Origin: Eledone cirrhosa
Taxonomy: Eukaryota
Length of the DNA stretch: 64,000 nucleotides
Direction: 5' to 3'
Assembly (NCBI GenBank): GCA_964016885.1
Contig: OZ024742.1
Coordinates: forward strand, 42,036,001 to 42,100,000
In this document: positions 15,778 to 40,785 of the stretch, in pieces
How positions within the stretch are numbered: the stretch's first letter is position 1
How the letters are laid out: every line of letters starts with the position of its first letter
Notes under the pieces: model-generated
The model's input: only the letters and a program-made list of their open reading frames with translations
The model's database searches: none
What the model was told of the DNA's origin: nothing
Position numbers and translations under genes: made by a program

Positions 15778-15779
15778 AG

Positions 15780-16060: not shown

Positions 16061-16394
16061 GGGAATATTTTTCAAAATTCCAACCCAAGCTAAATGAACA
16101 ATAATAATTCTTAGGGGTATAAAAACCCTAGAAAATGCTATTTTCATCATTTCTAAAAATAGCAAAACAATTGATGCTTTGAATAGGGCCAAATAGAAGT
16201 CGTTAGACATGCCCAACCAACCATGATGCCTAAACCAATCAGCTTCAGTAATCCAGTGAAACTACACACCGATTGGTCGAAATACAGTTTGCAAAATTTA
16301 GCATTCTGTAGCCGCTTTTCACTGTATATAAGGCACAAAATTTACCCATCTCATTACAGTTGAAAATTGTAAACTTGACTGTCACCACAGAATA

Positions 16395-16433
16395 TGAACC
16401 TGAAGATTGCGAAAGCATGAAATTACTTGTTCA
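16395..16433 (+). ncRNA. Minimal type I hammerhead ribozyme, stem III mutated
   Basis: TGAAC-CTGAAGA-T-TGC(GAAA)GCA-T-GAAA-TTAC-TT-GTTCA. Confidence 0.65.
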
Positions 16434-16577
16434 ATTAACACTTAATATTCAACCATGCTATTTCATTCTAATACCATTATAATTTTAAAGGATTGTAAAT
16501 AAAACGAGTAAATCAGACAAAGTTGGAATTCCTTTTATTAATATAATATTCTATACACAATCATACACACCCGTCTA

Positions 16578-16642
<65 letters not shown>

Positions 16643-16839
16643 CTTTTAAGCTATTTTGTAGTATCCCTGTTCAGAAACACACCACTTATATTAAATTTAT
16701 CTCCCTGGAGCTTTGTAAAAGTCTGAGAGATTGGCTACATATATGTTTTATATATAAATTTTTTTTTTTTTAGATGGAAGACAAAACAAAGAAGATGAAT
16801 ACAAAGATGAAGAAGAGAAAGATAAAGATGAAGAACCTC

Positions 16840-17128
16840 ACTGCACAACATCACATCGCAGTGCACCGCACCACATCACACCACACTTCACCACACCACA
16901 TAAAAACATACAACACTACACCACACCATATAACAACACAACACACCACTCCTCACTACAACACACCACACTACTCCACATAAAAACACACCACACTACT
17001 CCACACCACATAACACCACAACACAGCACACCACACCTCACCTCACTACATCAACCACATAAAAACACATCTCACTACATCACCCCACATAAAAACACAC
17101 CACACTACACACCACATAACACCCAACA
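16840..17128. repeat. (CACCA/CACTA)n degenerate pentamer tract (others at 18250-18565, 20550-20760)
   Basis: Seen directly in the sequence. Confidence 0.85.
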
Positions 17129-18249
17129 TTTTTTCCTCATCTGTTTTACATGTGTTATCAACTAATCCGAACTCCAAGATGTTTGTTATTGACTCTCTCT
17201 TCATGGAAAACTTAGGTGGATGCACTTCTCTCATTTAACCCCAGAGTTTTCTCTAAGATTTTTCGTATGTTATCAACAAATATGACCTCCAAACCAGTTG
17301 GAAATGATTAGTTGTTCTAGGAAAAAGGAGGGGTAAAGCAGGTGGAAAAACCATTGTCGTTTTGTAGATATATACCCTAATGATTTTTCTTCGGTCTCCT
17401 TTTGAGTGCTATCAACTAATCTGACCTTTTAGTTGCTCTGAATCAATTTTTTTTTCTGGGATTTGGAAACTAAAACTAAATTAAACATAAAATTAAATCT
17501 AGCCCCAACCCTAAACTCTAAATCTAAACCAAACCAAGCTAAATCTAAATTTAAACATTACCCCAACCCTTAAACTAAACCCTAAACTATACCCCAACCA
17601 TAAAACAAAACCCTAAACATTACCCCAACCCTAAAACTAGACCCTAAACATTACCCCAAACCTAAAACTAAACCCTAAACTTTACCCCAACCCTAAAACT
17701 AGACCCTAAACATTACCCCAAACCTAAAACTAAACCCTAAACTTTACCCCAAACCTAAAACTAAACCCTAAACTTACCCCAACCCTAAAACTAGACCCTA
17801 AACATTACCCCAACCCTAAAACTAGACCCTAAACATTACCCTAAACCTAGCCCAGGGAAATAAGTTGGTTGGAAGCATCTAGGAGGTCAGATTAATTAAT
17901 AGCACAGGAAATAGCATAGGAAATAGCATAGGAAATTAATAGCACAGGAAATATACCGAAAATGATTAAGTCCCACAACATGTGAGTGGGGTGTAGATCT
18001 GCAAAACTCTTCTCCTCTCCCTCCTCTTTCTCCAAAGCTAGTTGTTTTTGACTGGTTTGGAAGTCATATTCACTGATAATGCATGAAAATAGAATCAAAG
18101 AGAAAATTCTGAGTAAGCAGGGGTTATCCGGGTGAAGGGGGAACCACCTCACCCCGCCGTTTTCCTGGGGGGAGAAAGTCAGTTTCAAGCATCTTGGAGA
18201 TTGGATTAGATTGGTTGATAGCACATGAAAAATAGGATGAAAAAATTTC
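17129..18249. mobile_element. Foldback/MITE-like element with imperfect inverted arms
   Basis: Left arm TTTTACATGTGTTATCAACTAATCC...CTCCAAGATG mirrors right arm CATCTTGGAG...GTTGATAGCACATGAAAA. An inner pair lies at about 17403 and 17882. Confidence 0.6.
17480..17852. repeat. Telomere-like CCCTAAA/CCCCAA minisatellite, period about 30-31 bp
   Basis: ACCCTAAACATTACCCCAACCCTAAAACTAG units. Confidence 0.85.
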
Positions 18250-19022
18250 ACATCACATCACACCACACCACATCACACCATGTCTCGTCTCGTCTCGCCT
18301 CGCCTCATTTCACCACGCCACGCCTCATTTCACCACGCCACATTTCATCACATCACATTACATTTCACCACGCCACACCACATTTCATCACATCACATCA
18401 CATTTCACCACGCCACACCACATCACATGCCATCACACCACATGCTACCACACTACATCCCACCACACTCCACTACACAATATCCCCCACCCTACATTGA
18501 ACCACACTCCACTTCACCACACCACTGTCCACTACACTAAACCACACTACACTACACCACACCACTGTCTATTCGACTGTTTTCTATTTCGTAGGTATGT
18601 CCAGTTACAGTAAGAGAAAGAAAGTTATTTCAAAGGATCTGAGTAAGTAAACACTTCATTGACCATCATTTTAAGCAGAATCTCAGTGTAGTTTTAAATT
18701 GACCTTTTCATATGATTACACCTCAGTCTTAACTTAATCACCTGTAGATGGATGCTACATGTAATGTTAAAATTAGTTAAACACTGTTTCCCCCTTCTCA
18801 TCACATGTGGATGCTAGATGTGTATTGTTAACATTAATCTAACGATGTCTCCCCCTTCCTGCCTCACCATATCATACCACACCACATCACACCATGTTGT
18901 ACCACACCAGACCACATAACACCATGCTATACCATATATATATATATGAGCTCTCCACTCGTTATATTAACTGAATCTCCTCGGTGTTTCGTGAAAGTCT
19001 GAGAGATCAGCTATATATTTGT

Positions 19023-19977
19023 GTGGGTCCCGTTTGTGAGACAAACCTTTCCCAGACTCGTCTCACTCACCGAGCTGCAATCTTGGGTCAAGCAAAGACC
19101 GAGAAAACTGGGCGCCTGGCACACTGAGTGTGCCCAGGTGCTCATGGCCCTCTGGCAGGTGGACCCGGTTATCAGTGGAGACTCCACCGCGACATTCTAT
19201 AGAGGGCTGGTACGCAGCAGGTGCAATGACGCCCTTGGAGAAGCCCTAGACATGGAGGAAGACGAACTGGCCAGCCTGTTCAGTAGGACATTCAGCCCGG
19301 GACCTATGGACAACTTCCAGAAGTCCCTAGCTACCGAGGGGCTCTACCCGTTCGAGAAAAGCTCTACAGACACGGGCGCCCGGGTAGGGACCCCGCCAAA
19401 AAGATCTGTCCCAGATGCGTGCGCAACGAGGAAACCGTTGCACACGTATTGGTACACTGCTTGGGCGTAGCCGATCTGTGGGGCTATGTCGAACGACTGC
19501 TATCAAGGGTGGGACCGATCCGGTTGACAACCGAGGCCATTGTAACGATTAAGCCGCTTCCCCCCTTCAAAAATGAATGAGAGGCGGTGTTTCTGTGCGT
19601 AATAGCCATGGTGAAAGAGGTTGTATGATGGACGCATCTGAAAGGACTCAGGTCAGGCACCTTTCTCTCTGGCCAACAACTGATCCGTTTCTTCCGATAT
19701 CATTTCGGAAGAAGGATCAGGATGGAGAGAGATGCTCAACCCCAGTCGTTTTTATGAAAGGTGGGTGAAAGTGGCGAGAATGGCCCGTGTGAATGGGCCT
19801 TCTCTCTATATCAGCTTGTAGGTGGAAAAAAGGAAGGAACGAGGGAGCACCCTCTCTCTGTGCTCCTGAGGAGAAGGGGTTGCACACTATTGAGGACTTT
19901 ATTGTTAATTTTATATTTGTTATTTGTTTTCTTTACTCGCCTTTTTGTGTAAACTGCCCCCTTGTATTTGTCCCCTT
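19023..19977 (+). mobile_element. 5'-truncated Tx1/L1-clade LINE with 12-bp target-site duplication
   Basis: Translation YRGALPVREKLYRHG...CPRC..EETVAHVLVHC..LW (zf-RVT type CCHC). TSD CTATATATTTGT at 19011-19022 and 19978-19989. Confidence 0.85.
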
Positions 19978-20829
19978 CTATATATTTGTTTACAATTTTT
20001 TTTATATTTAGATGGAAAAGAAGAAAAAGACGACGAAGCAGACGACTAAAATGAAAATGACAACAAAGACAAAGAAGATACGGGAAACGAAGATGACGAA
20101 AAGAAGAAGAAAGTATGATCTCAGTTCAGTCTAAACCTAATGATTTATAGATATGATCTTAGTTCAGCCTTAACCTAATGACCTGTAGATACAATCTATT
20201 TAGGTTTAACTTAAACATTCAAAGATATTTGTATATACTTTTGTTGATATTTGACATTGTTTTTTAGTTATGAAATAGCTTATAAGCTACATTATAGGAC
20301 CACAGTGCATGAGCACACTGCTCTTTAAATTAACTTTATCTCCTCAGCACTTTGTAAAGTCTGAGAGATAGGCAACATATATGTTTTACATTCTTTGTTT
20401 TTGGTATTTAGATGGCAGAGGAGAAGATAAAGGCACAGAAGAAGTCAAAGGCGCAGAAGAAGTCAAAGAAAATGAACGAGAAGAACAATTATTATTACTA
20501 TTATTATTGTTATTATTATTGTTATTATTATTTGTATTATTATAATCAAACTAAGCCACACTACATCAACCTATACCATGCCACACCACACTGACAAACA
20601 TTATACCATACCACATTATCCAACACCACACTACGAAACACTGTACGACCTCACATCAGACCATGCTATGAAACAATATACCATACTACACTATACAACA
20701 ATAGACAACACCACACAAGACTATGAAACACTATACTTTACCACACTATATCACACCACTCAAGTTAGAGAGGATCAACTTTTTTCCTGGAAAGTAGAAA
20801 ACCTAACTTTAAGCTAAAACCGAACTTTA

Positions 20830-23800
20830 AAAATAACTTACCCTAACACTTGCACTCACACATGCTCTAACAGTGAACTTAGCGCTAACATGAAAACTAA
20901 CACAAATACAAAATCTGAAAACTAACATTAAATAGAAAACTAACACAAACACTAACCTGAACACTAACACTAAAACTGACACTAACACTAACCTGAACAT
21001 CAGCACTAAAACTAACACTACCGTAAACACTAATACAAACACTAACACTAACCTGAACACTTACACTAAAACTAACATTAGCACAAACATTAGCCTGAAC
21101 ACTAGCACTAAAACTAACACTACCATAAACACTAACACTGACCTGAGCACTAACACTAAAAGTAACACTAACACAAACACTAATCTGAAAACTGACACTA
21201 ACCAGAAAACTAAGCTAACATTAACTTCAACACTAAAACAAACACTAACGCTAACAGAGATACTAACACAAATATTAACACAAAAACAAACACTAATACA
21301 ATCTCTAACACTAACCTCAACAGTAACACTAAAACTAACATTAACTTGAACACTAACTCTAACCTGAAAACTAAGCTAACATTAACCTGAACACTAATGC
21401 TAACACTAACAGAAATACTAATGCTAACATTAACGCTAACCTTAACACAAAAACAAAGACTAACGCTAACACAATCACTAACACTAATGGAAACAAAAAC
21501 AAATACTAAAACTAACACTAACATTAACTTGAACACTAACACTAACCTGAACACTTACACTAAAACTAACAGAGATACTAACACAAATATTAACACAAAA
21601 ACAAACACTAACACAATCTCTAACACTAAAACTAACATTAACTTGAACGCTAACACTAACCTGAAAACTAAGCTAACATTAACGCTAACACTAACACTCA
21701 TAACAGAAATACTAATGCTAACATTAACGCTAACCTTAACACAAAAACAAAGACTAACGCTAACACAATCACTAACACTAATGGAAACATCAAACACTAA
21801 TGCTAACAGAGATACTAACACAAATATTAACACAAAAACCAAACACTAACACTAACCTTAACACTAAAACTAACATTAACACTAACCTGAACGCTTACAC
21901 TAAAACTAACATTAACCTAAACACTAGCACTAAAACTAACACTACCATAAACAGTAACACAAACACTAACACTGATCTGAGCACTAACACTACCATAAAA
22001 ATTAACACAAAAAAAAACACTAACACTAAAACTGATACTAACCAGAAAACTAAGCTAACATTAACCTCAACACTAAAACAAACACTAACATTAACAGAAA
22101 AACAAAGACTAGCACTAACACAAACATTAACACAAAATAAAACACTAACACTAATGGAAAAAATAACACTAACACTAAAACTAACACTAACCTGAACACT
22201 AACAATAAAACTGACATTAACACAAACACTAACACTAAAACTAACACTACCATAAACCACTAACCTGAGCACTAACACTAAAAGTAACACGAGCCCTAAT
22301 CTGAAAACTAACACTAACCAGAAAACTAAGTCAACATTAACCTGAACACAAACACTAACACTAACAAAAATGCTAACACTAATACAAAATCAAACACGAA
22401 CGCTAATGGAAACACTAACACTAACGCTGACACTGACGAAGATGGCTATGCTGGCACAAACGCTCGCGCAAATGTTGACACAATCGCTTACGCTGACACA
22501 AACACTAACGTGAATACTGATGCAGGTGCAAAGGCGAATGCTGACAAAGACTCTGACGCACACGCTGATGTAAATGCTACACAGACTCTAACGCTGACGT
22601 GGATACTGACACAAATGCTCACGCTGATGCAAACACTAAAGCAAATGCAGACACTAATGCAAACACAGATGCAAATGTTGATACAGATGTTAAAGCAAAC
22701 GCAAATGCTGACGCAAACGATGACAACGATGCTACTGTGAACCTTAATGCAGACGTAAACATTGATGTAGAAGCTAAAGGAAACACTGATGCAAATACTA
22801 ATGAAAATGCTGACACAGATGCTAACACACGTTACCACAGATGCTAACGTAAACACTGACGCAGATGTTAATATAAACACTGACGCAGAGGCTAACATAA
22901 ACGCTGACACAGACACTAATGTAAGCGCTGACGTAGAAGCTAACGTAGAAGCTAACAAAACGCTGACGTAGTTGTTACGTAGAAGCAGGCGTAGAAGTTA
23001 GCGTTTACCCTTACCGCCGAAGCTGATCTCCAAAACGCAATTGCTGATGCGGATTGCTGAAGCCAAAGCCAAGCTAACGCTGACGCAAATGTTGAGGCAG
23101 TTTTGCCGGCGCTGACGTGTATGCTGACGCTAACGCAAATGCTGATGCAGACGCTAGGGCTAAGGCTAACACTAACGCTGACGCAAATGCTGAAGTTAAC
23201 GCTTACATGGGATATGCAGACGCTGCAATGATGCGGACGCCACAGGAAAGGTTAATGGAAACGCTAATGCTAACGGAAAACGCTGACGCAGACGTTACGG
23301 AAACGCTGACGTAGAAGCTAACGTAAACGCTGACACAGACGCTAACGTAAACGCTGACACAGACGCTAACGTAAACACTGACGTTAACTGAAACGCTGAC
23401 GCTGATGTAGATGTAAATACTGACGCTGACACAGACGCGGTCGGAAACGCTGACGTAGAAGCTAACGGAAATGCTGACGTAGAAGCTAACGGAAATGCTG
23501 ACACAGACGCTAACGGAAATGCTGACAAAGACGTTAAAGGAAACGCTATCGCAAATGCTAATGTGAATGCTGATGCTGATGCAAATGTTAACCCCTACAC
23601 AAATGCAAACGACGCTGATGCTAACACTGACTCAAACACTAATGCAAATGCTGACGTGCACGCTGATGCAAACGCTGACACTGAGGGAAATGCTGACACT
23701 GACACAAGTGCTGACGCGGACGCTAATGATAATGCTGACTCAGAAGCTGACGTAGACGCAGGCACTGAAACAAAAACTAATGCTAACACTAATGTTGACT

Positions 23801-24030
23801 CAGACGCTAAGGGAAATGCTGACACAATGCTCACACAATCACTATCACCAATGCAGACGCTGACGCAAATGCTGACATAGATGCTGACAGTTACGCAAAC
23901 ACTAAAGCTAATCCAAACACTAAGGCAGATGCTAACACCAGTCTACATAGACACTAACACAAAAGCTTACATAGACGCTTATGCAAATGCTAACAGTAAA
24001 ACTTACCCTAACACTAACCCTAAATCTAAA
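20830..24030. repeat. Degenerate 6-bp-period array, (ACTAAC)n grading into (GCTGAC/GCTAAC)n
   Basis: Seen directly in the sequence; it produces the LTLT/NTNT/ADAN pseudo-ORFs. Confidence 0.9.
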
Positions 24031-24099
24031 ATTAATCCAGAGAAAAAAAGTCATTTGCAATCACATTTAAGGTCACTCTTTAAGATATAGAAGATAGGC

Positions 24100-27000
24100 A
24101 TTACATTTTAATGATTTTAATTTAAAGAGAATCACGCTATATGATGCAACACAATAACACACCACACCACACTAACCTTCACTACACCAAACCAGATTAT
24201 ACCATACCTTGGTAAATTTATTATAGGTTTCCATGTTATAACTACACCAAACTACATCAAACCAAACCACACCATAACAAACTACACCATACTACATCAC
24301 ACCATGCTATTGAACTCAGTGTGAAAAATGTTCTTCCTGCTTTTTTTTGTCTTTTTTTTTGTGTGTGTGTGCTTACCACCCAATCTGACATTAAAAGTGT
24401 TCGCAATTAACTATTTTTTGCACATATTATCAATGTATATAACATGGAAACCTATCATTTGCAATAGGTTCCCATGTCATAACTACAACAATCCAAACCA
24501 CACCATAGCAAACTGCACCATTCTACATCACACCATGCTTTTGATCTCAGTGTGAAAAATTTTCTTCCTGTTTCTTTTTTTTTTTGTGTGTGTGTTCTTA
24601 CCACCCAATCTGACATCAAAGGTGCTGCAATTGACTATTTTTCGCACATATCAATAATTATGACATGGAAAACTGTCGAAAATGACGAGCTTTGTAGAAA
24701 AAAGAGGGAGGATGCGGGTGGAAATACCATTTACAAAGCTAGTCATTTTTTATTGCAGCGGAAGTCATATTTTTTGTTAATATGCTAAAAGCATAGTGTA
24801 CTGCGAGCATCTTGGAAGTTGTATTAGTTGATAGCACATGCAAAAGTGAAGGAAAAAAATTTTTTCTTACATAAATCAAAGTGGAAATTTAATTCCTTAC
24901 TTATAACAAAGCACACCACACCACATTAATCTACCCCAAACCACACCATATCAAACAGCACCATATTATGGTAAATTTATTACAGAACACATACTCCTAT
25001 CATTTACATCACACCATGGTATGGACATCAATGTGACAAATTTGCTACCTGCTTTTTTTTATTTTTTGTGTTTACCACCCAAACTAACATCAAAGGTGCT
25101 TGCAAATGACTATTTTCCCACACATTATCAATGAATATGACATGTGAATCTATCGTTTACAATTGGTTTCCATTTCATAACTTCACCGAACCAAACCAAA
25201 CCACACCATACCAAGTTACACCATACTACATCACACCAAGCTATTGATCTTGGTGTGAAACATTTTCTTCCCGTTTCCTTTTTTTTTTTTGTGTGTGTGC
25301 TTGCCCCGCAAACTGACATTAAAGGTGCTCCCAATTGACTATTTTTTTTCCACTTATCAATAATTATGACATGGAAACCTGTCGAAAATGACTATCTTTG
25401 TAGAAACTTCACCAAACCACACCATACTACATCACACCAAGCTATTGATTTTGGTGTGACAAATTTTCATCAGGTAATTTTTTTTTTTTTTTCCTGTGCT
25501 TACCACCCAATTTGACATAAATGGTGCTCGCAAATTACTATTTTATGCACATATTATCAATGGTTATGACATGGAAACCTGATGAAAATGACTAGTTTTG
25601 TAGGAAAAAGAGGGAGGATGTGGGTGGAAATACCATTTACAAAGCTAGTCATTTTTTATTGCAGCGGAAGTCATATTTTTTGTTAATATGCTAAAAGCAT
25701 AGTGTACTGCGAGCATCTTGGAAGTTGTATGAGTTGATAGCACATGCAAAAGTGAAGGAAAACATTTTTTTATTACATAAATCAAAGTGGAAATTTAATT
25801 CCTTACTTATAACAAAGCACACCACACCACATTAATCTACCCCAAACCACACCATATCAAACAGCACCATATTATGGTAAATTTATTACAGAACACATAC
25901 TCCTATCATTTACATCACACCATGGTATGGACATCAATGTGACAAATTTGCTACCTGCTTTTTTTTATTTTTTGTGTTTACCACCCAAACTAACATCAAA
26001 GGTGCTTGCAAATGACTATTTTCCCACACATTATCAATGAATATGACATGGGAATCTATCGTTTACAATTGGTTTCCATTTCATAACTTCACCGAACCAA
26101 ACCAAACCACACCATACCAAGTTACACCATACTACATCACACCAAGCTATTGATCTTGGTGTGAAACATTTTCTTCCCGTTTCATTTTTTTTTTTGTGTG
26201 TGTGCTTACCCCCCAATCTGACATTAATCTACCCCAATCCACACGATAACCATGTTTCACTATATGGTAAATTTATTACAAAACACTTACTCCTACCATT
26301 TACATCACACCATGGTATGGATATCAATGTGACAAATTTGCTACCTGCTTTTTTTTTTTATGTGGTTACCACCTCAAACTAACATCAAAGGTGCTTGCAA
26401 ATGACTATTTTCCCCACACATTATCAATGAATATGACATGGGAATAGGTTTCCATTTCATAACTTCACCAAACCACACCATACCAAGTTACACCATACTA
26501 CATCACACCAAGCTATTGATCTTGGTGTGAAACATTTTCTTCCCGTTTCCTTTTTTTTTTTTTGTGTGTGTGCTTACCCCGCAAACTGACATTAAAGGTG
26601 CTCCCAATTGACTATTTTTTTTCTACTTATCAATAATTATGACATGGAAACCTGTCGAAAATGACTATCTTTGTAGAAACTTCACCAAACCACACCATAC
26701 TACATCACACCAAGCTATTAATTTTGGTGTGACAAATTTTCATCAGGCAATTTTTTTTTTTTTTTTTTTTTTTTGGTGCTTACCACCCAATTTGACATAA
26801 ATGATGCTCGCAAATTACTATTTTATGCACATATTATCAATGGTTATGACATGGAAACCTGATGAAAATGACTAGCTTTGTAGAAAAAAGAGGGAGGATG
26901 TGGGTGGAAATACCATTTACAAAGCTAGTCATTTTTTATTGCAGTGGAAGTCATATTTTTTGTTAATATGCTAAAAGCATAATCCACTGCGAGCATCTTG

Positions 27001-27420
27001 GAAGTTGATAGCACATGCAAAAAGGAATAAAAAAATTTTATCTAACATAAATCAAAGTGGAAATTTAAATCCTCACCACAGCACATTAATCTACCCCAAT
27101 CCACACTATAACCATACTTCACCATATGGTAAATTTATTACAGAACACTTACTCCTACCATTTACATCAAACCAATGCTCGCAGTTGACTATTTTTTTCA
27201 CATATTATGAATGAATATAACTTTGAAACCTATCGTCAATGATTAGCTTTGTAGAAAAATGAAGGCAGAAAGTGGGTGGAAAAACCATTCACAAAGCTAG
27301 TCATTTTTAATTGCAGTGGAAATCATATTTGTTGTTAATATGCTAAAGAAATAGTCAATTGCAAGCATTTTGGAGGTCAGATTAGTTGATAGGACATAAA
27401 AAAACAAAGAAAACAAATAT
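24100..27420. repeat. Complex satellite (subunits of roughly 170-200 bp, irregular higher-order units with an internal palindrome)
   Basis: Recurrent CACCATACTACATCACACC and ATGACATGGAAACCT. GAGGGAGGATG landmark at about 24703, 25610 and 26890. Confidence 0.85.
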
Positions 27421-27572
27421 TGTCTATATGTTCCTGTGGAAAGTCGGGGCTTCTGTATTACTGTGTGACGCCAGAGGTCATGGTCGTGTGTCATTGCCCT
27501 TGAGAGGTGCAATTAGGAAAGGTCGGCTTAGAAATATTTACTTTTGCGTTCACAGATTGATTTTTTTTTTTT

Positions 27573-27985: not shown

Positions 27986-28072
27986 ATTAATGGTAATAAC
28001 AGTGATGATGATGATGACGGTGCTAGTATTGGTTAGTGATGATGATGATGTAACAGAACTTAGATTACTTAC

Positions 28073-29575: not shown

Positions 29576-29612
29576 TCCCGTGAGATGAAACAGAAAATAT
29601 TTGATGTCTTAC

Positions 29613-29733
29613 CTGAAATCTTGAACTGTACCATTTTGTTTTACCCATGATGCCTTGTTTTTCCCCTGCCGTTGATTCGATATTTTCATTGTCTTCTCGG
29701 CAAGTAGGCGCAGCAATTCTGTATCAACATCAT
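29613..29733 (-). CDS. ANKS6: ANKS6 coding exon 5
   Basis: DDVDTELLRLLAEKTMK...; tag acceptor, gtaaga donor; 121 nt, phase 1-2. Confidence 0.85.
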
Positions 29734-29741
29734 CTATAATA

Positions 29742-29962
29742 ATAATAGTTTCTGATTTAAGCACAAGGCCAACATTTTATGGGGATCGGGAAATTCGATT
29801 AAATTTACCCCAGTGCATTACTGGTGTTTTGTTTTATTGACCTCGTAAGGATGAAAAGCAAAGCTAACCTTGGTAGGATTTGAACTCAGAACATAAAGAG
29901 CTGTAACACAATGCCATAAAACATGTTGTCTGATGCTCTACCAATACTACCAATCCACCAAG
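29742..29962 (-). mobile_element. tRNA-derived SINE, family 2 (other copies 30877-31082 -, 40790-40885 +, 61664-61763 +, 63371-63575 -)
   Basis: B-box-like GAGTTCAAATCC and a conserved GCCTTTCATCCTTACG.GGTCGATAAAAT body on the coding strand. Confidence 0.7.
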
Positions 29963-30102
29963 GTTAATGACATAGTGTCTTTCATTAGAAATATGGTAAT
30001 GAAAGGGTTAATGACATAGACAGTGTCTTTCATTAGAAATATGGTAATGAAAGGGTTAATGACATAGTGTCTTTCATTAGAAATATGGTAATGAAAGGGT
30101 TA
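29961..30102. repeat. 45-49 bp tandem repeat, 3 copies
   Basis: GGTTAATGACATAGTGTCTTTCATTAGAAATATGGTAATGAAAG. Confidence 0.9.
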
Positions 30103-30126
30103 AGGAGAAGGAATAATTCCACTCAC

Positions 30127-30227
30127 CAAGTAGAGAAGCCATGTCAAATGCTGTACAACCATTCTTGGCTTGTACAGTTACTTCAGTTTTAGCATCGTTG
30201 ATGAGGAACATCGCCACAGATTTTTGT
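30127..30227 (-). CDS. ANKS6: ANKS6 coding exon 4
   Basis: QKSVAMFLIND...AKNGCTAFDMASLL; ttttcag acceptor, gtgagt donor; 101 nt, phase 2-1. Confidence 0.9.
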
Positions 30228-30629
30228 CTGAAAAGAAAGAAACACAGGAAGATTATTAAAGTTGATGATGATGAACTGGATTTCAATGCCATCATCTTTA
30301 TATCTTGTGACTATTTCTAGCAGATCTACTGACCACATAGAGGTGTTGTTAAAATTAAGGCAGAAAGCCTGCTGTGGGTCACATCTGGTTGATGATTGAA
30401 CATCTGGTTGTCTGGTCAACCATCTTTACATGGGTCACATCGTGTCTAACTGACCATCTGAATGTGTGGGTCACATCAGTAGAAGACACTTGCTCAATGT
30501 GTTAAACAGTTGACGCAAACGCCAAACCAGTTGGTTATAAGGTGACCTTCATTACCACACCAGCACTATAGGACTGGTCAGTTAGAGATGACCAGACACA
30601 CAACAACAGCATATGAAAGAAATCAGTAC

Positions 30630-30837
30630 CCATGGTAAGTTGCTTGCATCAATGCTGTCCAACCACTGATGGTATCTTGTTTGTTGGTATCACAACCGTT
30701 CTCCACTAACTGCCGAACAATATCTAACCGTCCCATCATCGCAGCAAACATAAGAGGAGTGGCTCCATCTTGTGGTGAACAAGCATCAACTTGTATCTTG
30801 TCTTCTTTCAGAATCTGAGATATCCTTTCAAGATCAC
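30630..30837 (-). CDS. ANKS6: ANKS6 coding exon 3
   Basis: GDLERI...DGATPLMFAA...GWTALMQATYHG; 208 nt, phase 1-2. Confidence 0.9.
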
Positions 30838-31160
30838 CTGAAACAAACAAAACAAAACTATAAACTCAAATCCTTTAATAATAATAGTTTCTGATTTAGG
30901 CACAAGGCCAACAATTTTTTGGGGAGGAAAGTCCACTAAATTGACCCCAGTGCATTACTGGTACTTTCTTTTATCAATCCTGTAGGAATAAAAGGCAAAG
31001 TTAACCACAACTGGATTTAAACGCAGAACTTAAAGGACTGTATGTTTAAAGCATTTTATTCCATGCTGTAATAATTCTGCCTATATATATATATATGATC
31101 ATTTATGTTATATCAGTACAACCCCTCAGTGCTCCTGAAAGATACAAAATAAAGACAAAC

Positions 31161-31205
31161 CTTGTTTAGAAGCATTTATGATGTCCGGTTTCACCTCTTC
31201 TGGAG
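31161..31205 (-). CDS. ANKS6: ANKS6 coding exon 2 (PEEVKPDIINASKQ)
   Basis: ttttgcag acceptor, G|gtttgt donor, 45 nt, phase 1-1. Confidence 0.8.
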
Positions 31206-32231
31206 CTGCAAAAGAAAAGATTAATAGTTTTTATTTTTAGTGACATCTTTAAAACATTCATGTCTCTTTTTCAAGGTCTTTGAGACTGATGGGAGGGAAG
31301 GAGTAGTGTCTTTGTCCCTTTTCTGGGCTGCTGAAACTTGTGGGAGGAAAGTAGGAAGTTACCTTTAGACCAAATACCTGGCCAAACAGATTGGACAGCA
31401 GAAAATATCCACACTTCGAATTTAAAACCAGCCACATATGTTTTGTCTGAAGATAAGACTTCAATTTGAAGTTAGTAAATTTCTCAGCCTCTTGATCTTG
31501 ACAGAAAACTGGGGACAGATTTTGGATGAGCACTTGAGAAATCTAAGTGGGTGTTGTGCTCAGTAACTGTAGATAATGGAGAACAGTGTGTGGTTCTTTG
31601 GTTGGATACCCCTACCACCAGCTCAAATAAGGCTCCACCAGCATTGTCACCCTCTGCATTCTATTTTCCCACTACATGACTGGTACTTTATTTCATTGTG
31701 TATGCCCAATGTTTTAACAATTATGTCAATGTCAAAATACAATATGACCCTTTCCACTTGTACCTTTGATATTCAGGTCAACCCTGAGTAATAGAACATG
31801 TAGGGAGTAATGGTTAGTGTTGACATATTTAATGGAAGAGACATAACAAATCTAATTCAAAAGAAGTTGGTGATGACAAACAGACAGCTCAATAACTAAT
31901 ATTATTTTTATTTTGGCCAGAAGGGGAGACAAATCTAGACAAGTCTCCATCTTGTTAGACCTCCTCAGCAAAGCATTGATTTCACTGTAATTTCTGAGGT
32001 AGAGATAAGAGGCTACATGAATAGCAAATATATGATTAGGTCCTAACTTCCCACTGGACGTCTGCTCTGGATAATCAAAGCAGGGTGGACATTGCTTAAG
32101 GAACACAAAGGGCCAAAACTTGTAGAACAACTAGCCTAAGCTACAACTAAACAACATGAAAATGATTCTTTTAAAAAGCTAGGTTGTATTGTATGTGTGT
32201 GTTTGATAATGTCAAAATTTAAATAACTTAC

Positions 32232-32905
32232 AAATTTTCGGTTTATTTTTGGTTTTCCGGTCTAAGTAGCCATGGACTTCTCGTTTTTCACGAATTTTTG
32301 CCATTTCCAGAGCGGTTCGTTCATTGATGTCGGTCAAATTAGGATCACAGCCTCTTTCAATGAGCACCTGAGCAGTGGTCATATGTCCATTCTGAGCAGC
32401 TGCCATTAACACCGTAAGGCCATTTGACGGTGTCCAGCAGAAGTCTCAGAACAGAATCATGACCGTTTTGGGCAGCAGACATTAATGGTGTTATCTCACA
32501 GTCCTTCCCAGATCTGTTATGCTCGACACCAGCATCTAGAAGCATCCGTACAACTTGGAGATGGCCGCCACGAGCAGCAATCGTCAGTGCAGAAGCTCCG
32601 AGTCTATTCAGGGCATTATAGTCGGCTTTATTTTGTAATAGTAAGGCCACAACATTAGTATGTCCATGACGACATGCTTGCATCAGAGGCGTCCAACCGG
32701 CCATGTTGGGTTTATCTAAAGCAGCCCCTCGCATCAACAGAAGTCGAACCACTTGTTCTTGTCCATTTGCAGCTGCCATTTCTAAGGCAGTAATTTCATC
32801 GTCGTCCACATCATCAACCTGTACGAATCCTTGATCCAACAGGTTGAGAATAACGTGAACCTCTCCATGTTCACAAGCACTCAGAAGTTGGCGGAATCTA
32901 TCCAT
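32232..32905 (-). CDS. ANKS6: ANKS6 coding exon 1 (ankyrin repeats; frameshift at about 32430)
   Basis: Start accATGG with an in-frame upstream stop. ORFs 32357-32905 and 32212-32412 are consecutive ankyrin repeats in different frames. Donor T|gtaagt. Confidence 0.9.
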
Positions 32906-33669
32906 GGTCCACCATTACAACCCATCACCCTTCCATCAGACATTCCGCCTTTTCCAATTGATAAAAAAAAAAGTAAAGTAAAAGAAAGTATAATAAAACC
33001 TTTCTTTCCTTATTTTTTCCCCCACCAAAATATATCTGTAATTAAACTAAATTAATCACACACCAACACCAGTGCTGTGGTAGACTTGTTGCAGACGATA
33101 ATTAACTAAATTTAATTAAAGACACTTTAGAAATATTTACATCTGTAATAATAATCAAAACAAACAGACGATCAAAGTCTTTCTAAGTTCAAACTCCGCC
33201 AATTGTCAACTCAATTTAGAATTTTTCACGATTTAACAAAGCAAAATATTAAAACTCCATCAGTTTGTTGGTCAGGAGATAACACCCTTCTCACTGACAG
33301 TTATATATTATCTATAACATCTGTTGTTATATTGTTCTATAAACAAATGTTATATAAATTACCGAGGCAGGTATTGAGTCCTCCGATACGCGTTCAATAT
33401 TTGAATTTATTAAAAAGTTTCCCAAAGAAATTCCAGAGACTTTTTTTTTTCTCTTAAAAGTAAATAATTTATTTTTATCCGCTCATCGTCGTTATGTCCC
33501 AATAATAGAAATGTCTTTGTGTAGAGGAGTCCTTTTTAAATGGAGTATTTCTTAACGATAAACATAGCGATATTACGGATATTTCATACATAAAACAGGG
33601 AGAATATTCCATTAATTGATCGATGGAAACTTTTACAAAAACTTTTCGAAACTTTTTTCTTCCTGCAAG

Positions 33670-33790
33670 TGTCCGCCATGATGGGATGTGGTGACGTCAC
33701 ACTACCCAGCATCCCACACTTCCGGTACGTGCACGTGCATTTGTGATGTAAACAACTTCAGAACAGCAATCGATACAACCAATCAGAAGA
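33670..33790. promoter_or_regulatory. Probable ANKS6 promoter motif cluster
   Basis: CCGCCAT (YY1-like), TGACGTCA 33692 (CRE), TACCCAGCATCCC (ZNF143-like), ACTTCCGG 33718 (ETS), CACGTG 33732, TGTAAACAA 33747 (forkhead) and CCAATCAG 33779, all within 120 bp. Confidence 0.6.
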
Positions 33791-36700
33791 GAGATCGAAT
33801 CAACCGTCTTGGGGGCTCGACCCGGACTCAGCCTCGTTCTGGGTCGAGCCCATAGCCGGGTCGAACTCAGAACGAGACTGAGTCCAGAACACTAACCTGA
33901 ACACTAACACTAAAACTGACATTAATACGAACATTAACCTGAACACTAACACTACCATAAACCACTAACCTGAGCACTAACACTAAAAGTAACACGAGCC
34001 CTAATCTGAAAACTAACACTAACCAGAAAACTAAGTCAACATTAACCTGAACACTAACACTAACAAAAATGCTAACACTAATACAAAATCAAACACGAAC
34101 ACTAACACAATCGCTTACGCTGACACAAACATTAACGTGAATACTGATGCAGGTGCAACGGCGAATGCTGACAAAGACTCTGACGCACACACTGATGTAA
34201 ATGCTACACAGACTCTAACGCTGATGTGGACACTGACACAAATGCTCACGCTAATGCAAACACTAAAGCAAATACAGACACTAATGCAAACACAGACGCA
34301 AATGTTGATGCAGATGTTAAAGCAAACACAAATGCTGACGCAAACGATGACAGCGATGCTAATGTGAACCTTAACGCAGACGTAAACATTGATGTAGAAG
34401 CTAAAGGAAACACTAATGAAAATGCTGACACAGATGCTAACGTAAACACTGACGCAGATGTTAATATAAAAACTGACGCAGACGCTAACATAAACGCTGA
34501 CACAGATGCGAACACACGTTGACGCAGACGCTAACGTAAATGATGACACAGACACTAATGTAAACGATGACGTAGAAGCTAACGTAAACGCTGACACAGA
34601 CGCCAATGTAAACGCTGACACAGACGCAAATGTAAATACAGACGCTGACGTAGAAGCTAACACAAACACTGACACAGACACTAATGTAAGCGCTGATGTA
34701 GATGCAGACGTAGAAGCTAATGTAAACGATGACGGAGATGTTAACGTAGAAACTGACGAGATGCTGATGTAGAAGCTAACGTAAACGCTGACGTAGAAGC
34801 TAACAAAACGCTGACGTAGTTGTTACGTAGAAGCAGGCGTAGAAGTTAGCGTTTTCCCTTACCGCCGAAGCTGATGTCCAGAACGCAATTGCTGATGCGG
34901 ATTGCTGAAGCCAAAGCCAAGCTAACGCTGACGCAAATGTTGAGGCAGTTTTTCCGGCGCTGACGCTAATGCAAATGCTGATGCGGACGCTAGGGCTGAC
35001 GCAAATGTTGAGGCAGTATTGCCGGGCGCTGACGTGTATGCTGACGCTAATGCAAATGCTGATGCGGACGCTAGGGCTAAGGCTAACACTAACGCTGACG
35101 CAAATGCTGAAGTTAACGCTTACATGGGATATGCAGACGCTGCAATGATGCGGACGCCACAGGAAAGGTTAATGGAAACGCTAATGCTAACGGAAAACGC
35201 TGACGCAGACGTTACGGAAACGCTGGCGTAGAAGCTAACGTAAACGCTGACACAGACGCTAACGTAAAAGCTGACACAGACGCTAACGTAAACACTGACG
35301 TTAACTGAAACGCTGACGCTGATGTAGATGTAAATACTGACGCTGACACAGACGCGGTCGGAAACGCTGACGTAGAAGCTAACGGAAATACTGACGTAGA
35401 AGCTAACGGAAACACTGACACAGACGCTAACGGAAATGCTGACAAAGACGTTAAAGGAAACGCTATCGCAAATGCTAATGTGAATGCTGATGCTGATGCA
35501 AATGTTAACCCCTACACAAATGCAAACGACGCTGATGCTAACACTGACTCAAACACTAATGCAAATGCTGACGTGCACGCTGATGCAAACGCTGACACTG
35601 AGGGAAATGCTGATGCAGACGCTGACGCAAATGCTGACATAGATGCTGACACTTACGCAAACACTAAAGCTAATCCAAACACTAAGGCAGATGCTAACAC
35701 CAGTCTACATAGACACTAACACAAAAGCTTACATAGACGCTTATGCAAATGCTAACAGTAAAACTTACCCTAACACTAACCCTAAATCTAACATTAATCC
35801 AGAGAAAAAAGTCATTTGCAATCACATTTAAGGTCACTCTTTAAGATATAGAAGATAGGCATTACATTTTAATGATTTTAATTTAAAGAGAATCACACTA
35901 TACAATGCAACACAATAACACACCACACCACACTAACCTACACTACACCAAAACAGATTATACCATACCTTGGTAAATTTATGATAGGTTTCCATGTTAT
36001 AACTCCACCAAACTAAACCATACCAAACTACACCAAACCAAACCACACCATAACAAACTACACCATACTACATCACACCATGCTATTAATCTCAGTGAGA
36101 ACATTTTTCTTCCTGTATTTTTTTTTTTATGTGTGTGTGTGTGTGCTTACCACCCAATCTGATATCAAAGGTGCTCACAAATGACTATTTTTTTATACGT
36201 TATGAATGTATATAACATGGAAACCTATCATTTGCAATAGGTTCCTATGTCATAACTACAATAATCCAAACCACACTAACAAACTACACCATTCTACATG
36301 ACACCATGCTTTTGATCTCAGTGTGACAAATTTTCTTCCTGTTTCTTTTTTTTTTATTGTGTGTGTTCTTACCACCCAATCTGACATCAAAGGTGTTGCA
36401 ATTGACTATTTTTCGCACATATTATCAATAATTATGACATGGAAAACTGTCGAAAATGACTAGCTTTGTAGAAAAAAGAGGGAGGATGCGGGTGGAAATA
36501 CCATTTACAAAGCTAGTCATTTTTTATTGCAGCGGAAGTCATATCTTTTGTTAATATGCTAAAAGCATAATCCACTGCGAACATCTTGGAAGTTGATAGC
36601 ACATGCAAAAATGAAGGAAACATTTTTTTTATAACATAAATCAAAGTGGAAATTTAAATCCTCACTTATAACAAAGCACACCACAGCACATTAATCTACC

Positions 36701-38224
36701 CCAATCCACACCATAAATTCACCATAACCATAGTTCACTATGGTAAATTTATTACAGAACACCTACCATTTACATCACACAATGGTATGGAGATCAATGT
36801 GACAAATTTGCTAACTGCTTCTTTTTTTTTTTGTGGTTACCACCTCAAACTAACATCAAAGGTGCTTGCAAATGACTAATTTCCCACACATTATCAATGA
36901 ATATGACATGGGAATCTATCGTTTACAATTGGTTTCCATTTCATAACTTCACCAAACCACACCATACCAAGTTACACCATACTACATCACACCAAGCTAT
37001 TGATCTTGGTGTGAAACATTTTCTTCCCGTTTCCTTTTTTTTTTTTTGTGTGTGCTTACCACCCAATCTGACATTAAAGGTGCTCCCAATTGACTATTTT
37101 TTTTCCACTTATCATTAATTATGACATGGAAACCTGTCGAAAATGACTATCTTTGTAGAAACTTCACCAAACCACACCATACTACATCACACCAAGCTAT
37201 TGATTTTGGTGTGACAAATTTTCATCTGGCAATTTTTTTTTTTTTTTGTGCTACCACCCAATTTGACATAAATGGTGCTCGCAAATTATTATTTTATGCA
37301 CATATTATCAATAGTTATGACATGGAAACCTGATGAAAATGACTAGCTTTGCAGAAAAAAGAGGGAGGATGTGGGTGGAAATACCATTTACAAAGCTAGT
37401 CATTTTTTATTGCAGCAGAAGTCATATCTTTTGTTAATATCCTAAAAGCATAATCCACTGCGAGCATCTTGGAAGTTGATAGCACATGCAAAAATGAAGG
37501 AAACATTTTTTTCCTAACATAAATCAAAGTGGAAATTTAAATCCTCACTTATAACAAAGCACACCACAGCACATTAATCTACCTCAATCCACACCATAAC
37601 CATACTTCACTATATGGTAAATTTATTACAAAACACCTACTCATACCATTTACATCACACCATGGTATGAACATCAATGTGACAAATTTGCTACCTGTTT
37701 TTTTTTTTTTTCTGGTTACCACCTCAAACTAACATCAAAGGTGCTTGCAAATGACTATTTTCCCCACACATTATCAATGAATATGACATGGGAATCTATT
37801 GTTTACAATTGGTTTCCATTTCATAACTTCACCATACCAAACCAAACCACACCATACCAAGTTACACCATACTACATCACACCAAGCTATTGATGTTGCG
37901 ATGAAACATTTTCTTCTCGTTTCTTTTTTTTGTGTGTGTGTGCTTACCCCCCAATCTGACATAAATGGTGCTCGCAAATTACTATTTTATGCACATATTA
38001 TCAATGGTTATGACATGGAAACCTGATGAAAATGACTAGCTTTGTAGAAAAAAGAGGGAGGATGTGGGTGGAAATACCATTTACAAAGCTAGTCATTTTT
38101 TATTGCAGCGGAAGTCATATCTTTTGTTAATATGCTAAAAGCATAGTGTACTGCGAGCATCTTGGAAGTTGATAGCACATGCAAAAATGAAGGAAAAATT
38201 TTTTTTCTAACATAAATTAAAGTG

Positions 38225-38474
38225 AAAATTTAAAGACACTTTATTTCACATTGCTCCAGTTTACTCAGCTATAGAAATGAGATGATAGGGACTGGGGTCC
38301 CTATCATTCCACTGCAAAGTGGTCGTGTAGGTGCCACGGCAAAAACCACCCAGCACTCACTGTAAATGAGGTTGGTGTTAGGAAGGGCATCCAGCTGTAG
38401 AAATCAAGCCAGAATCAGTTCCCGTCCCACCCTTGCAAGCAGGGAAAAGTGGACGTAAAATGATGATGATGATG
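38225..38474 (+). mobile_element. SINE family 1, 5'-truncated, inserted in satellite copy B
   Basis: Matches 41766-42052; no equivalent seen in copy A. Confidence 0.8.
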
Positions 38475-39831
38475 GTAAAATCATAGTCGGCTGTGAGCAT
38501 GTTGGAGGTTGGAAAACCATACCACATTAAACTACATCAAACTACACCATACCAAACTACACCATACTACATCACACCATGCTATTAATCTCAGTGAGAA
38601 CATTTTTCTTCCTGTTTTATTTTTTTTCTGTGTGTGCTGACCACCCTATCTGATATCAAAGGTGCTCACAAATGACTATTTTTTTACACATTATCAATGT
38701 ATATAACATGGAAACCTATCATTTGCAATAGGTTCCCATGTCATAACTACAACAATCCAAACCACACCATAGCAAACTGCACCATTCTACATCACACCAT
38801 GCTTTTGATCTCAGTGTGAAAAATTTTCTTCCTGTTTCTTTTTTTTTTATTGTGTGTGTTCTTACCACCCAATCTGACATCAAAGGTGCTGCAATTGACT
38901 ATTTTTTTTCTACTTATCAATAATTATGACATGGAAACCTGTCGAAAATGACTATCTTTGTAGAAACTTCACCAAACCACACCATACTACAGCACACCAA
39001 ACTATTGATTTTGGTGTGGCAAATTTTCATGTGGCATTTTTTTTTTTTTTTTTTTTTTTCTGCTTGACATAAATGGTGCTCACAAATCACTATTTTATGC
39101 ACATATTATCAATGGTTATGACATGGAAACCTGATGAAAATGACTAGCGTTGTAGAAAAAAGAGGGAGAATGTGGGTGGAAATACCCTTTACAAATCTAG
39201 TCATTTTTTATTGCAGCGGAAGTCATATTTTTTTTTAATATGCTAAAAGCATAGTGTACTGCGAGCATCTTGGAAGTTGATAGCACATGCAAAAATGAAG
39301 GAAAAATTTTTTTTATAACATAAATCAAAGTGGAAATTTAAATCCTCATTTATAACAAAACACACCACAACACATTAATCTACCCCAATCCACACCATAT
39401 ACTTCACCATAACCATACTTCACTATATGGTAAATTTATTACAGAACACCTACTCCTACCATTTACATCAAACCAATGCTCGCAGTTGACTATTTTTTTC
39501 ACATATTATGAATGAATATAACTTTGAAACCTATCGTCAATGATTAGCTTTGTAGAAAAATGAAGGCAGAAAGTGGGTGGAAAAACCATTCACAAAGCTA
39601 GTCATTTTTAATTGCAGTGGAAATCATATTTGTTGTTAATATGCTAAAGAAATAGTCAATTGCAAGCATTTTGGAGGTCGGATTAGTTGATAGGACATAA
39701 AAAAACAAAGAAAACAAATATTGTCTATATGTTCCTGTGGAAAGTCGGGGCTTCTGTATTACTGTGTGACGCCAGAGGTCATGGTCGTGTGTCATTGCCC
39801 TTGAGAGGTGCAATTGGGAAAGGTCGGCTTA

Positions 39832-40785
39832 GAAATATTTACTTTTGCGTTCACAGATTGATTTTTTTTTTTTTAGTTTCAGAAGATCCCATTAAGGGTG
39901 AAAGCAGCCAATTTTTTGCTTAAACTTTAATCTGTTATTTTAATAAATATTTGCTCTACGGTTCTTATATAATTGATATATATTTATTCTTATCGAGCCC
40001 TCTTTGGATGTTAGTCTTCAAATGTATTATTATTACTATTTGGTTCCCTTGACTGAGTACTCTATTGACTTATATTCATCATGCAGAAACATCTGAATAT
40101 TTCTACAAAGAACATACCCTTACCAAGCAGGAAGAAATACCTAAAACTACGTCTCCACGAACCAAAGTATCGCCTTCCTGTCTTCCTTCGGTTGCAACCT
40201 TTTTCGAAATATTTACTTCTGTGTTCACAGATTGATTTTTTTTTTTTTAGTTCCAGAAGATCCCATTAAGGGTGAAAGCAGCCGATTCTTTGCTTAAACT
40301 TTAATCTGTTATTTTAACAAATATTTGCTCTACGGTTCTTATATATTTGATATATATTTATCCTTATCGAGCCCTCTTTGGATGTTAGTCTTCAAATTTA
40401 TTATTATTACTATTTGGCTCCCTTGACTTATATTGACTTATATTCATCATGCAGAAACAACATCTGAATATTTCTACAAAGAACATACCCGTACCAAGCA
40501 GGAAGAAATACCTAAAACTACGTCTCCACGAACCAAAATATCGTCTTCCTGTCTTCCGTCGGTTGCAACGTTTTTCGAAATATTTACTTCTGCATTCACA
40601 GATTGATTTTTTTTTAGTTTCAGAAGATCCCATTAAGGGTGAAAGCAGCCGATTTTTTGCTTAAACTTTAATCTGTTATTTTAATAAATATTTGCTCTAC
40701 GGTTCTTATATAATTGATATATATTTATCCCTATTGAGCCCTCTTTGGATTTTAGTCTTCATATGTATTATTATTACTATATATA
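39832..40785 (+). repeat. About 2.6 tandem ~372-bp Penelope pLTR-like units, each with a hammerhead-like motif (39875-39926, 40249-40300, 40616-40667)
   Basis: GAAATATTTACTT landmark at 39832, 40206 and 40577. The units include an ATG followed by STKNIP(L/V)PSRKKYLKL. Confidence 0.8.

Follow-up and report, generated by a model that had tools for sequence, protein, structure and literature searches.

Half of ANKS6 within a 12.9-kb unit bounded by Penelope-like ends in Eledone cirrhosa

In a 64-kb stretch of Eledone cirrhosa DNA (hereafter the window), the second of two tandem units spans 12.9 kb, is bounded by ends of the Penelope-like element (PLE) type and carries half of the host gene ANKS6. 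This copy of the gene is probably a young duplicate of an intact ANKS6. The model favored here, held at about even odds, is that a promoter-to-pLTR read-through RNA was retro-inserted in trans into a TA microsatellite. A sequence-only reading had described two tandem units with common ends and different cargo; the anatomy and the common ends stand, but gene cargo in unit 1 is not confirmed and the ends of both units are re-read. The features are as follows:

15778..16071, minus: GIY-YIG C-terminal piece, inverted, 5′-truncated, 98 codons; EN+ PLE (Neptune/Nematis type)
16076..16438, plus: sense pLTR of family A, with the last codons of the same PLE ORF as the GIY-YIG piece; terminus 16438
16325, 16351-16355 and 16395-16433, plus: TATA box, Inr-like motif and hammerhead A of this pLTR (putative promoter)
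16439..22182, plus: unit 1 upstream body, diverged block-related repeats
17470-17849: CCCTAA-rich 31-bp array in this body, where ACTAAC arrays are also present
19023-19977: 955-bp insert in this body, 12-bp direct repeat
22183..27527, plus: shared block copy 1, non-coding; hexamer-derived arrays, ~200-bp satellite-like units, ~100-bp LINE-related fragment
27528..27740, plus: pLTR family B segment A; hammerhead B, position 17 at 27619; fixed terminus
27741..27906, no strand: TA/TATG microsatellite, right flank of unit 1 and left flank of unit 2
27907..27990, plus: cassette of unit 2; hammerhead A with palindromic loop III, 27947-27985
27991..33805, minus: ANKS6 5′ half (82 bp of intron 7, exons 7-1, 5′ UTR, promoter region)
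33806..33887, no strand: 82-bp junction filler, self-complementary; 18-bp inverted repeat (1 mismatch)
33888..39828, plus: shared block copy 2, 5′-truncated relative to unit 1; insert 38235-38513
39829..40783, plus: tandem pLTR-B monomers, 374 bp x 2.6, order A-B-A-B-A; retrozyme-like
40784..40970, no strand: right flank of unit 2, TA microsatellite broken by a ~100-bp dispersed repeat

The ANKS6 fragment and the shared block

The antisense, intron-containing and frameshifted 5′ half of ANKS6, together with its promoter, is borne out. It comprises exons 1-7 (28073-32905, aa 1-433 of 844), with a 26-bp frameshift deletion at ~32432. Exon 7, the last one, ends 82 bp from the cassette, whereas at the other side the 5′ UTR reaches at least 33637 and the segment ends at 33805, followed by the 82-bp filler. 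Introns 1-6 measure 0.3-1.0 kb, and the 28 kb to the left do not encode aa 434-844. Intron-containing host sequence is present between pLTRs in unit 2, with no PLE ORF inside. By eye, a gene start lies head-to-head ~23 kb to the right.

The same ~5.5-kb block does end both units, 22183-27740 being colinear with 33888-40039 apart from indels. Over seven aligned pieces, the two copies differ by 1.7-7.8% substitutions, and also by indels, internal duplications and a 280-bp insert private to unit 2 (38235-38513); they are therefore not a collapsed duplicate. Nor is block 2 a local copy of block 1, since it differs to this extent and carries segment B, which is missing from unit 1. In public contigs, the block is a non-coding repeat family ~100-fold deeper than ANKS6. 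The exon-like gene cargo proposed for unit 1 was not confirmed, as the middle of this unit matches block repeats at 58-78% in addition to its own internal repeats; judged from these matches, it is an older block-related repeat. Pfam gave no match for the one of its three exon-like pieces that was scanned, nor for the 19003-19467 frame or an Ala/Asp/Asn-rich frame.

Both units end, as proposed, in the same terminal motif followed by TA-rich microsatellite. TA microsatellite occurs on both flanks of unit 2 and is absent at its two internal junctions; because both flanks are TA-rich, no target-site duplication (TSD) is readable. No 12-mer of the filler (33806-33887) recurs elsewhere within the 64-kb window. 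Using tblastn with seven relatives, no PLE reverse transcriptase (RT) was found in the window, and the frames of the units are only low-complexity. The single RT + GIY-YIG ORF of an autonomous EN+ PLE is absent, and the 98-codon GIY-YIG end at 16071-15778 is the sole tblastn match.

PLE ends and hammerhead motifs

With regard to the 5′ ends, the 84-bp cassette shared by both units (16355-16438 and 27907-27990) is identical at 79/84 nt, and the copies diverge 10 nt after hammerhead position 17 (16428, 27980), in agreement with the homology stop described earlier. The cassette is the 3′ end of a PLE pLTR (family A). It starts unit 2 as claimed, but in unit 1 it is merely the end of a 363-bp pLTR (16076-16438), which reaches ~280 bp further left, contains a TATA box and adjoins an inverted GIY-YIG copy. 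The latter is indeed the Penelope fragment thought to abut unit 1 (Pfam GIY-YIG, E=1.2e-5 at 15778-16071). Its left end is cut by an RTE-like LINE, and it is 55-67% identical to the RT+GIY-YIG proteins P0121-P0127. The linker of these homologues is C-x4-C-xx-C, and it is this motif, not a tree, that gives the Neptune/Nematis assignment; the CX2-5CxxC linker region is truncated away in the window copy. A pLTR, a type I hammerhead and an inverted 5′-truncated copy at the 5′ end are all present (16076-16438 sense, 16071-15778 antisense), and the PLE origin of end A is shown.

In public contigs, the summed contig depth, which is not copy number, is ~36,000-55,000-fold over ANKS6 for the cassette and 100-185-fold for the block. 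The cassette, several hundred times more abundant by this measure, is thus an extremely abundant repeat in itself and not a dedicated part of the block family.

The 5′ end of unit 2 lies 30-32 nt past the position equivalent to the TATA box of the full pLTR in unit 1, which would place the start of unit 2 at the predicted transcription start of family A. Non-microsatellite TATAWAWR sites occur at ~0.5 per kb; a second one, at 16118, also lies in the family A pLTR, and the TATA reading is post hoc. TATA plus Inr was reported for rotifer pLTRs (PMC3846280), while the D. virilis Penelope promoter is TATA-less (PMC2377424).

The second hammerhead-like pLTR described at the unit ends is present, but unit 2 ends in 2.6 tandem 374-bp copies rather than one. 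Each segment A of 39829-40783 contains hammerhead B (two of the three pass a relaxed descriptor and the third misses by one base), and all four B copies share one common terminus ~120 nt past the hammerhead. This fixed terminus resembles the internal RT start of the anole PLE, in which RT starts downstream of the hammerhead and uncut RNA is the main substrate (PMC11167929). A reading of the 42-codon frame opened by segment B as a PLE N-terminus is unsupported, with no match in sequence searches or Atlas. The PLE origin proposed for both unit ends is supported, A and B representing unrelated pLTR families, each with its own hammerhead, and the window self-comparison detected no similarity between the A and B ends.

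As for the hammerheads themselves, their topology exceeds chance. A descriptor composed after the motifs had been seen gave four matches with a 5-bp stem I (16400, 27952, 39880, 40621) and one with a 3-bp stem I (7850), against 0/150 and 2/150 shuffled windows, respectively; copies at 27579 and 40254 show one mismatch each by alignment. On the other hand, no hammerhead occurred among 93 Rfam matches at E<=1, folding z-scores were uninformative (-0.76 to +0.72 for nine stretches), and the cores are non-canonical, with U opposite U at the stem II base, U17 and, in family B, U4A. Metagenome scans with hammerheads A and B returned 0 loci; three viral-contig loci covered 24-25 bases only, without stem I, and were rejected as chance. 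The hammerheads or consensus of both families may already sit in the supplements of PMC4209133 and PMC8557442. Cleavage is predicted 74 nt inward from the 5′ end of unit 2 and ~120 nt inward from its 3′ end, and the term "ribozyme-delimited" is not supported because neither end coincides with a cut site.

Duplicate status and origin of unit 2

Contigs were compared in four of eight runs (X1, X2, X4, X5); X1 and X2 derive from one sample, which may be the source of the window, and X4 is taken as RNA solely because its contig is spliced. The intact ANKS6 sought elsewhere was found as this spliced contig (X4 record 17), which has 26 extra letters behind 32430 and 5 substitutions in 1837 bases (0.27%) relative to the window. 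X1 record 7 and X2 record 15 match the window to 33805 and then continue with 336 letters unlike it, a block-less version of the upstream region. Given an intact mRNA 0.3% different and genomic contigs that leave the window at 33805, the window copy is probably a second locus, a young duplicate of the intact gene. Run X1 contains three versions at 31250-31252 (depths 8.0, 5.0 and 6.8), and the ANKS6 contigs are 1.4-2.3 times deeper than the single other-locus contig in each run. The DNA contigs departing at 33805 carry the 26-bp deletion of the window, so that bubble-merged contigs or further deleted copies are needed; a misjoin would fit too. None of the contigs listed spans 27990/27991 or 33805/33806. 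The contig loose ends and joints listed are dominated by an abundant intronic repeat and include neither of these junctions. Parts of the block are covered by X4 contigs as well, but no strand or level can be read from these, and they may stem from DNA. Low block depth in organism B (X5) reflects a part without cover and is not counted as evidence.

In the favored model, unit 2 would be a single retro-insertion by a PLE reverse transcriptase/endonuclease acting in trans. The template would be a long plus-strand RNA from a family A pLTR promoter, running antisense through the ANKS6 5′ half, which is proposed as the reason why introns stayed unspliced and the promoter was copied. This RNA would have continued through a 5′-truncated copy of the ~100-copy non-coding element into tandem family B pLTR repeats. 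A nick in the TA microsatellite behind unit 1 would prime reverse transcription, which would start from the fixed B terminus and proceed to the 5′ end of the RNA, the hammerheads remaining uncut as passengers without a role in setting the ends. A variant with two template jumps in one insertion would yield the same product. Unit 1 would represent the same non-coding element in an older and longer copy, headed by a family A pLTR that bears a promoter; comparison of the two blocks shows them, by sequence, to be separately derived, while we infer the transcription start, the RNA route and the order of events.

It was reported that Neptune and Naiad PLEs have a (TA)n bias (PMC8557442). The precedent for the model is a rotifer PLE study, which describes a gene with introns and a TSD between pLTRs and proposes an antisense template for intron retention (PMC3846280). 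Against the model, the two pLTRs of unit 2 belong to different families, whereas no cross-mobilization between EN+ and EN- PLE types was seen in the rotifer, and the cassette is abundant enough to have inserted on its own, as one of the short insertions common among PLEs (median 128 bp in Chlamydomonas; PMC9977147).

The strongest competitor, possible although rather unlikely, is DNA-level duplication: the cassette and block would have inserted separately at the native ANKS6, or the ANKS6 piece would have been copied from DNA during break repair, the composite later moving by way of breakpoints in TA microsatellites. Fold-back filler and microhomology deletion, both seen here, are typical of repair synthesis, and the cassette is very abundant. 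Moreover, on its 5′ side the segment outruns the mRNA contig by ~170 bp (to 33805, against 33637), which a DNA template explains without antisense RNA. However, palindromic 5′ junctions have been described for PLEs too, and under DNA-level duplication, the 5′ end at TATA+30 and the shared orientation of all PLE parts would have to be coincidence or the result of prior insertions.

It is improbable that the window holds the native ANKS6 locus as a null haplotype, with exons 8+ beyond it and an intron 7 of >28 kb in which unit 1 and further elements reside. The 0.27% difference from the mRNA is within allelic range, depth by itself is compatible with one heterozygous locus, and the head-to-head gene start to the right would fit. 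Nevertheless, one sample has three versions at 31250-31252, introns 1-6 are short, and the 336 letters past 33805 cannot be the repeat-rich right flank of unit 2.

Still less credible is the strict original proposal, in which cassette and block form a dedicated element, two hammerheads cut the ends of its RNA and the cargo between them is swapped. Equal order and orientation of cassette and block in both units and the non-random hammerhead topology speak for it; yet no end lies at a cut site, the cassette is far commoner than the block, that of unit 1 belongs to an ordinary PLE insertion with an inverted copy, and the middle of unit 1 is block-related. A misassembly at 33805-33888, by which the ANKS6 promoter and a block copy were falsely joined, is the least probable, even though in both DNA runs the long contig with the deletion of the window leaves at 33805 and no listed contig spans the junction, as the filler is unique, structured sequence, the blocks are diverged rather than collapsed, and both runs show depth beyond the long contig in bin 33627-33846, indicating that filler-side sequence is present in the sample.

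Significance and comparison with known systems

Few cases of RNA-borne duplication keeping introns and promoter are documented, the rotifer NRPS gene being the clear one found; the RNA route, if true, would be a little-documented origin of such duplicates. Three questions become testable with a very young 13-kb example that has an intact source gene, carries its cargo antisense and begins at a predicted pLTR start. The first is whether antisense templates account for intron retention by PLEs, the second whether element ends are set by the pLTR hammerheads or these are only passengers, and the third what share of cephalopod gene-fragment duplication is retro-derived yet scored as DNA duplication. 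A bolder and tentative proposal concerns this octopod lineage as such. It would harbor an active family of giant non-coding PLE passengers (11 kb or more, about a hundred of them) that terminate in retrozyme-like repeats. Together with the promoter-bearing pLTRs of a second PLE family, which number tens of thousands, they would routinely make intron- and promoter-retaining antisense duplicates of any sequence between the two, unit 2 being a very recent product. Many of the genome's apparent segmental duplications would then have arisen from RNA.

The literature searched, from which most subscription papers were absent, listed no PLE cargo element in cephalopods. Terminons are also giant PLE-related units, head-to-tail, with hammerheads near their ends and host genes between neighbors (PMC6431247), and the unit body here has degenerate C-strand telomere-like arrays. 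Unlike Terminons, the present units have no EN-deficient RT, as no RT matched, and no accessory ORFs, only low-complexity frames; their 3′ ends enter TA microsatellite, an endonuclease-type target, instead of telomeric repeat, and CCCTAA-rich sequence is internal. The EN+ PLEs Neptune and Nematis share the C-terminal GIY-YIG, the inverted 5′-truncated copy beside a sense pLTR, the pLTR hammerhead and the (TA)n bias (PMC8557442), whereas only terminal pieces, with no RT ORF, occur here.

The tandem B array resembles metazoan non-LTR retrozymes, which likewise consist of tandem monomers with one type I hammerhead each (374 bp here, 350-390 bp in mussels) and for which an origin from pLTRs was proposed (PMC7229834; bioRxiv 10.64898/2026.07.22.740005). 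It differs in its non-canonical core (U4A, U-U at the stem II base), in having only 2.6 copies and in the fusion of the monomers to a 5-11 kb upstream body.

In Adineta vaga, pLTR-framed host genes are mobilized in trans by Penelope (Arkhipova et al. 2013, PMC3846280). That case spans ~4 kb and involves a single pLTR family; its TSD measures 8 bp, and an empty site was described. Unit 2 is longer (12.9 kb), combines two pLTR families, carries only part of a gene, antisense and with its promoter, and includes a large non-coding body that is itself a repeat; its target is a microsatellite, and its flanks show no readable TSD. In both cases, pLTRs frame host sequence that retains introns and encloses no PLE coding sequence, pLTR pieces occur in direct as well as inverted orientation, the junctions are palindromic and an antisense template has been proposed (PMC3846280).

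The two tandem units and their shared parts

The units lie in the same orientation, each opening with a cassette (family A hammerhead) and closing with a pLTR of family B. The features of the window (a PLE being a Penelope-like element) are as follows.

2092-15778 and 44700-48030: nested LINE copies stacked in TATG microsatellites, pairs 92-98% identical
~7262-7640: presumably a mariner-like fragment
7843-8037 (+): third hammerhead-like motif with textbook minimal features
16071-15778 (antisense): C-terminal GIY-YIG of RT+EN PLE proteins, 55-67% identity
16355-27740: unit 1 (pLTR A from 16076)
17128-18246: block-related repeats as an inverted pair around a 31-bp tandem array
19023-19977 (+): insertion bearing a 12-bp direct repeat, which we take to be the 3′ part of a LINE of Tx1/L1 type; a Pfam scan gave no match
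27907-40785: unit 2
28073-32905 (antisense): seven ANKS6 exons
48059-48200: near-perfect 140-bp hairpin, MITE-like, set in TA microsatellite, with sub-threshold miRNA matches
54874-55933: inverted-repeat element, arms weakly matching the histone stem-loop, under gathering score
56530-63224 (+): exons that by eye presumably resemble a Tectonic gene; no match in a Pfam scan of one piece

The sequence-only reading had the same 84-bp hammerhead cassette opening both units, and 79/84 bases indeed agree. Directly right of the GIY-YIG fragment, the + strand carries the last codons of the same PLE ORF and runs on to 16438. Because this sense pLTR adjoins an inverted truncated copy, the usual PLE arrangement (PMC8557442, excerpt), the cassette represents a pLTR 3′ end. 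Position 16325 carries a TATA box, and the pLTR A copy of unit 2 starts 30-32 nt downstream of the equivalent point, so that its 5′ end would be the predicted transcription start; this match is post hoc, and Penelope of Drosophila has a promoter without a TATA box (PMC2377424, excerpt). As a repeat, the cassette is clearly very abundant: its summed contig depth is ~36,000-55,000x that of ANKS6, which does not equal copy number.

The units also end alike, as had been observed, in a common 212-bp segment with a second hammerhead and a fixed terminus ~120 nt downstream, followed by TA microsatellite. In unit 2 this segment lies within 2.6 tandem 374-bp monomers. Segment B, the other part of the monomer, opens a short frame (40040-40202 and 40414-40573, +), which to us recalls a PLE N-terminus, a reading supported by none of the sequence searches. 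The monomers are of a size with mussel retrozymes (PMC7229834, excerpt), and the tail has the sequence features by which non-LTR retrozymes are defined (bioRxiv 10.64898/2026.07.22.740005, excerpt). A terminus fixed past the hammerhead agrees with what is described for an anole PLE, in which RT initiates internally and cleavage is not required (PMC11167929, excerpt).

The large block said to be shared spans 22183-27740 in unit 1 and 33888-40039 in unit 2, and the two are colinear. They are real copies that have aged separately: substitutions range over 1.7-7.8% across seven aligned pieces, indels are frequent, and unit 2 has a 280-bp insert of its own. Since its depth is 100-185x that of ANKS6 in public contigs (first 600 bp compared), the block belongs to a repeat family whose copies number roughly a hundred. 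Its hexamer-derived arrays (22440-23900 and 34105-35700) read as Ala/Asp/Asn-rich frames, one of which had no match in a Pfam scan, and recall the Asn-rich inserts of rotifer Penelope (PMC3846280, excerpt). The gene-fragment cargo proposed for unit 1 was not confirmed: its middle aligns with block repeats at 58-78% and includes arrays rich in CCCTAA and ACTAAC, and we take it for the older, upstream portion of that element rather than gene cargo. The 31-bp array has 15 CCCTAA in 380 bp versus 0 in 1-16075, and degenerate telomeric or subtelomeric repeats may have given rise to this body.

Hammerhead motifs

A descriptor composed after the motifs were seen gave four window matches with a 5-bp stem I, versus 0/150 shuffled windows. 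An Rfam search of the window returned no hammerhead, and folding of these stretches was not unusual. Compared with the minimal consensus (PMC4209133, excerpt), the cores lack the G10.1-C11.1 pair and have U17, and family B also has U4A. In the unit 2 cassette, loop III forms a palindrome with a computed dimer self-pairing of -8.8 kcal/mol, whereas that of unit 1 gave no such pairing. These are candidate ribozymes. An intron-3′-end-like sequence stands right before stem I in both families (27555-27573 and 16375-16389, +), as described in D. virilis Penelope (PMC4209133, excerpt). In the motif at 7843-8037 a base is added after A9, stem II has G-C at its base and 15.2-16.2 is palindromic, although position 4 is C; ~160 nt past it, a terminus agrees with that of family B at 26/29 bases, followed by TA microsatellite, and the stretch probably represents a solo pLTR from a PLE family related to B.

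Origin of unit 2 and its ANKS6 cargo

The evidence comprises the window sequence, protein relatives, public contigs compared with the window, and papers. The antisense, intron-containing, frameshifted ANKS6 5′ half reported in unit 2 was borne out: the exons encode aa 1-433 of 844, introns measure 0.3-1.0 kb, exon 1 has a 26-bp deletion, and the remainder beyond aa 433 is absent from the window. The window is octopod, as exon 1 shares 96% identity with the ANKS6 of Octopus bimaculoides and 94% with that of Argonauta hians.

Unit 2 is flanked by TA microsatellite on both sides, starts at the predicted pLTR A start and stops where pLTR B has its fixed terminus. Its block is not a local copy of that of unit 1. 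The simplest single event, to which we give about an even chance, is retro-insertion of a read-through RNA, a template-jump variant included; introns would survive since transcription ran antisense to the gene. PLEs are known to insert beside an earlier copy (PMC6765202, excerpt). A DNA-level duplication is a less probable origin.

The window ANKS6 is likely a young second locus, given the following findings together. A spliced contig from X4, a public run treated as RNA, has the 26 bases intact and 5 substitutions in 1837 compared bases, so that the species has an intact, near-identical mRNA. Each of two DNA runs from a single sample holds a long contig tracking the window to 33805, then 336 letters unlike it; position 31250-31252 has three versions within one run; and ANKS6 segment depth is 1.4-2.3x that of the single other-locus contig per run. 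Against this, the contigs departing at 33805 carry the window's 26-bp deletion, none among the contigs listed spans either internal junction of unit 2, and the DNA sample is possibly the window's own source. That the window holds the native locus as a null allele is improbable. The predicted cuts fall within unit 2, 74 nt from its 5′ end and ~120 nt from its 3′ end, so the ribozymes do not delimit it; a strictly ribozyme-delimited element, as first proposed, is very improbable, and an assembly misjoin is slightly less probable still.

Comparison with known systems

Identity as a Terminon (features per the review PMC6431247, excerpt) or as an autonomous PLE was rejected for unit 2. Unit 2 would carry greater weight as a member of a recurrent cargo-moving family. 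In mechanism it resembles the NRPS gene that pLTRs frame in Adineta vaga (PMC3846280, excerpt), but it spans 12.9 kb, has pLTRs of two families and shows no target-site duplication that can be read.
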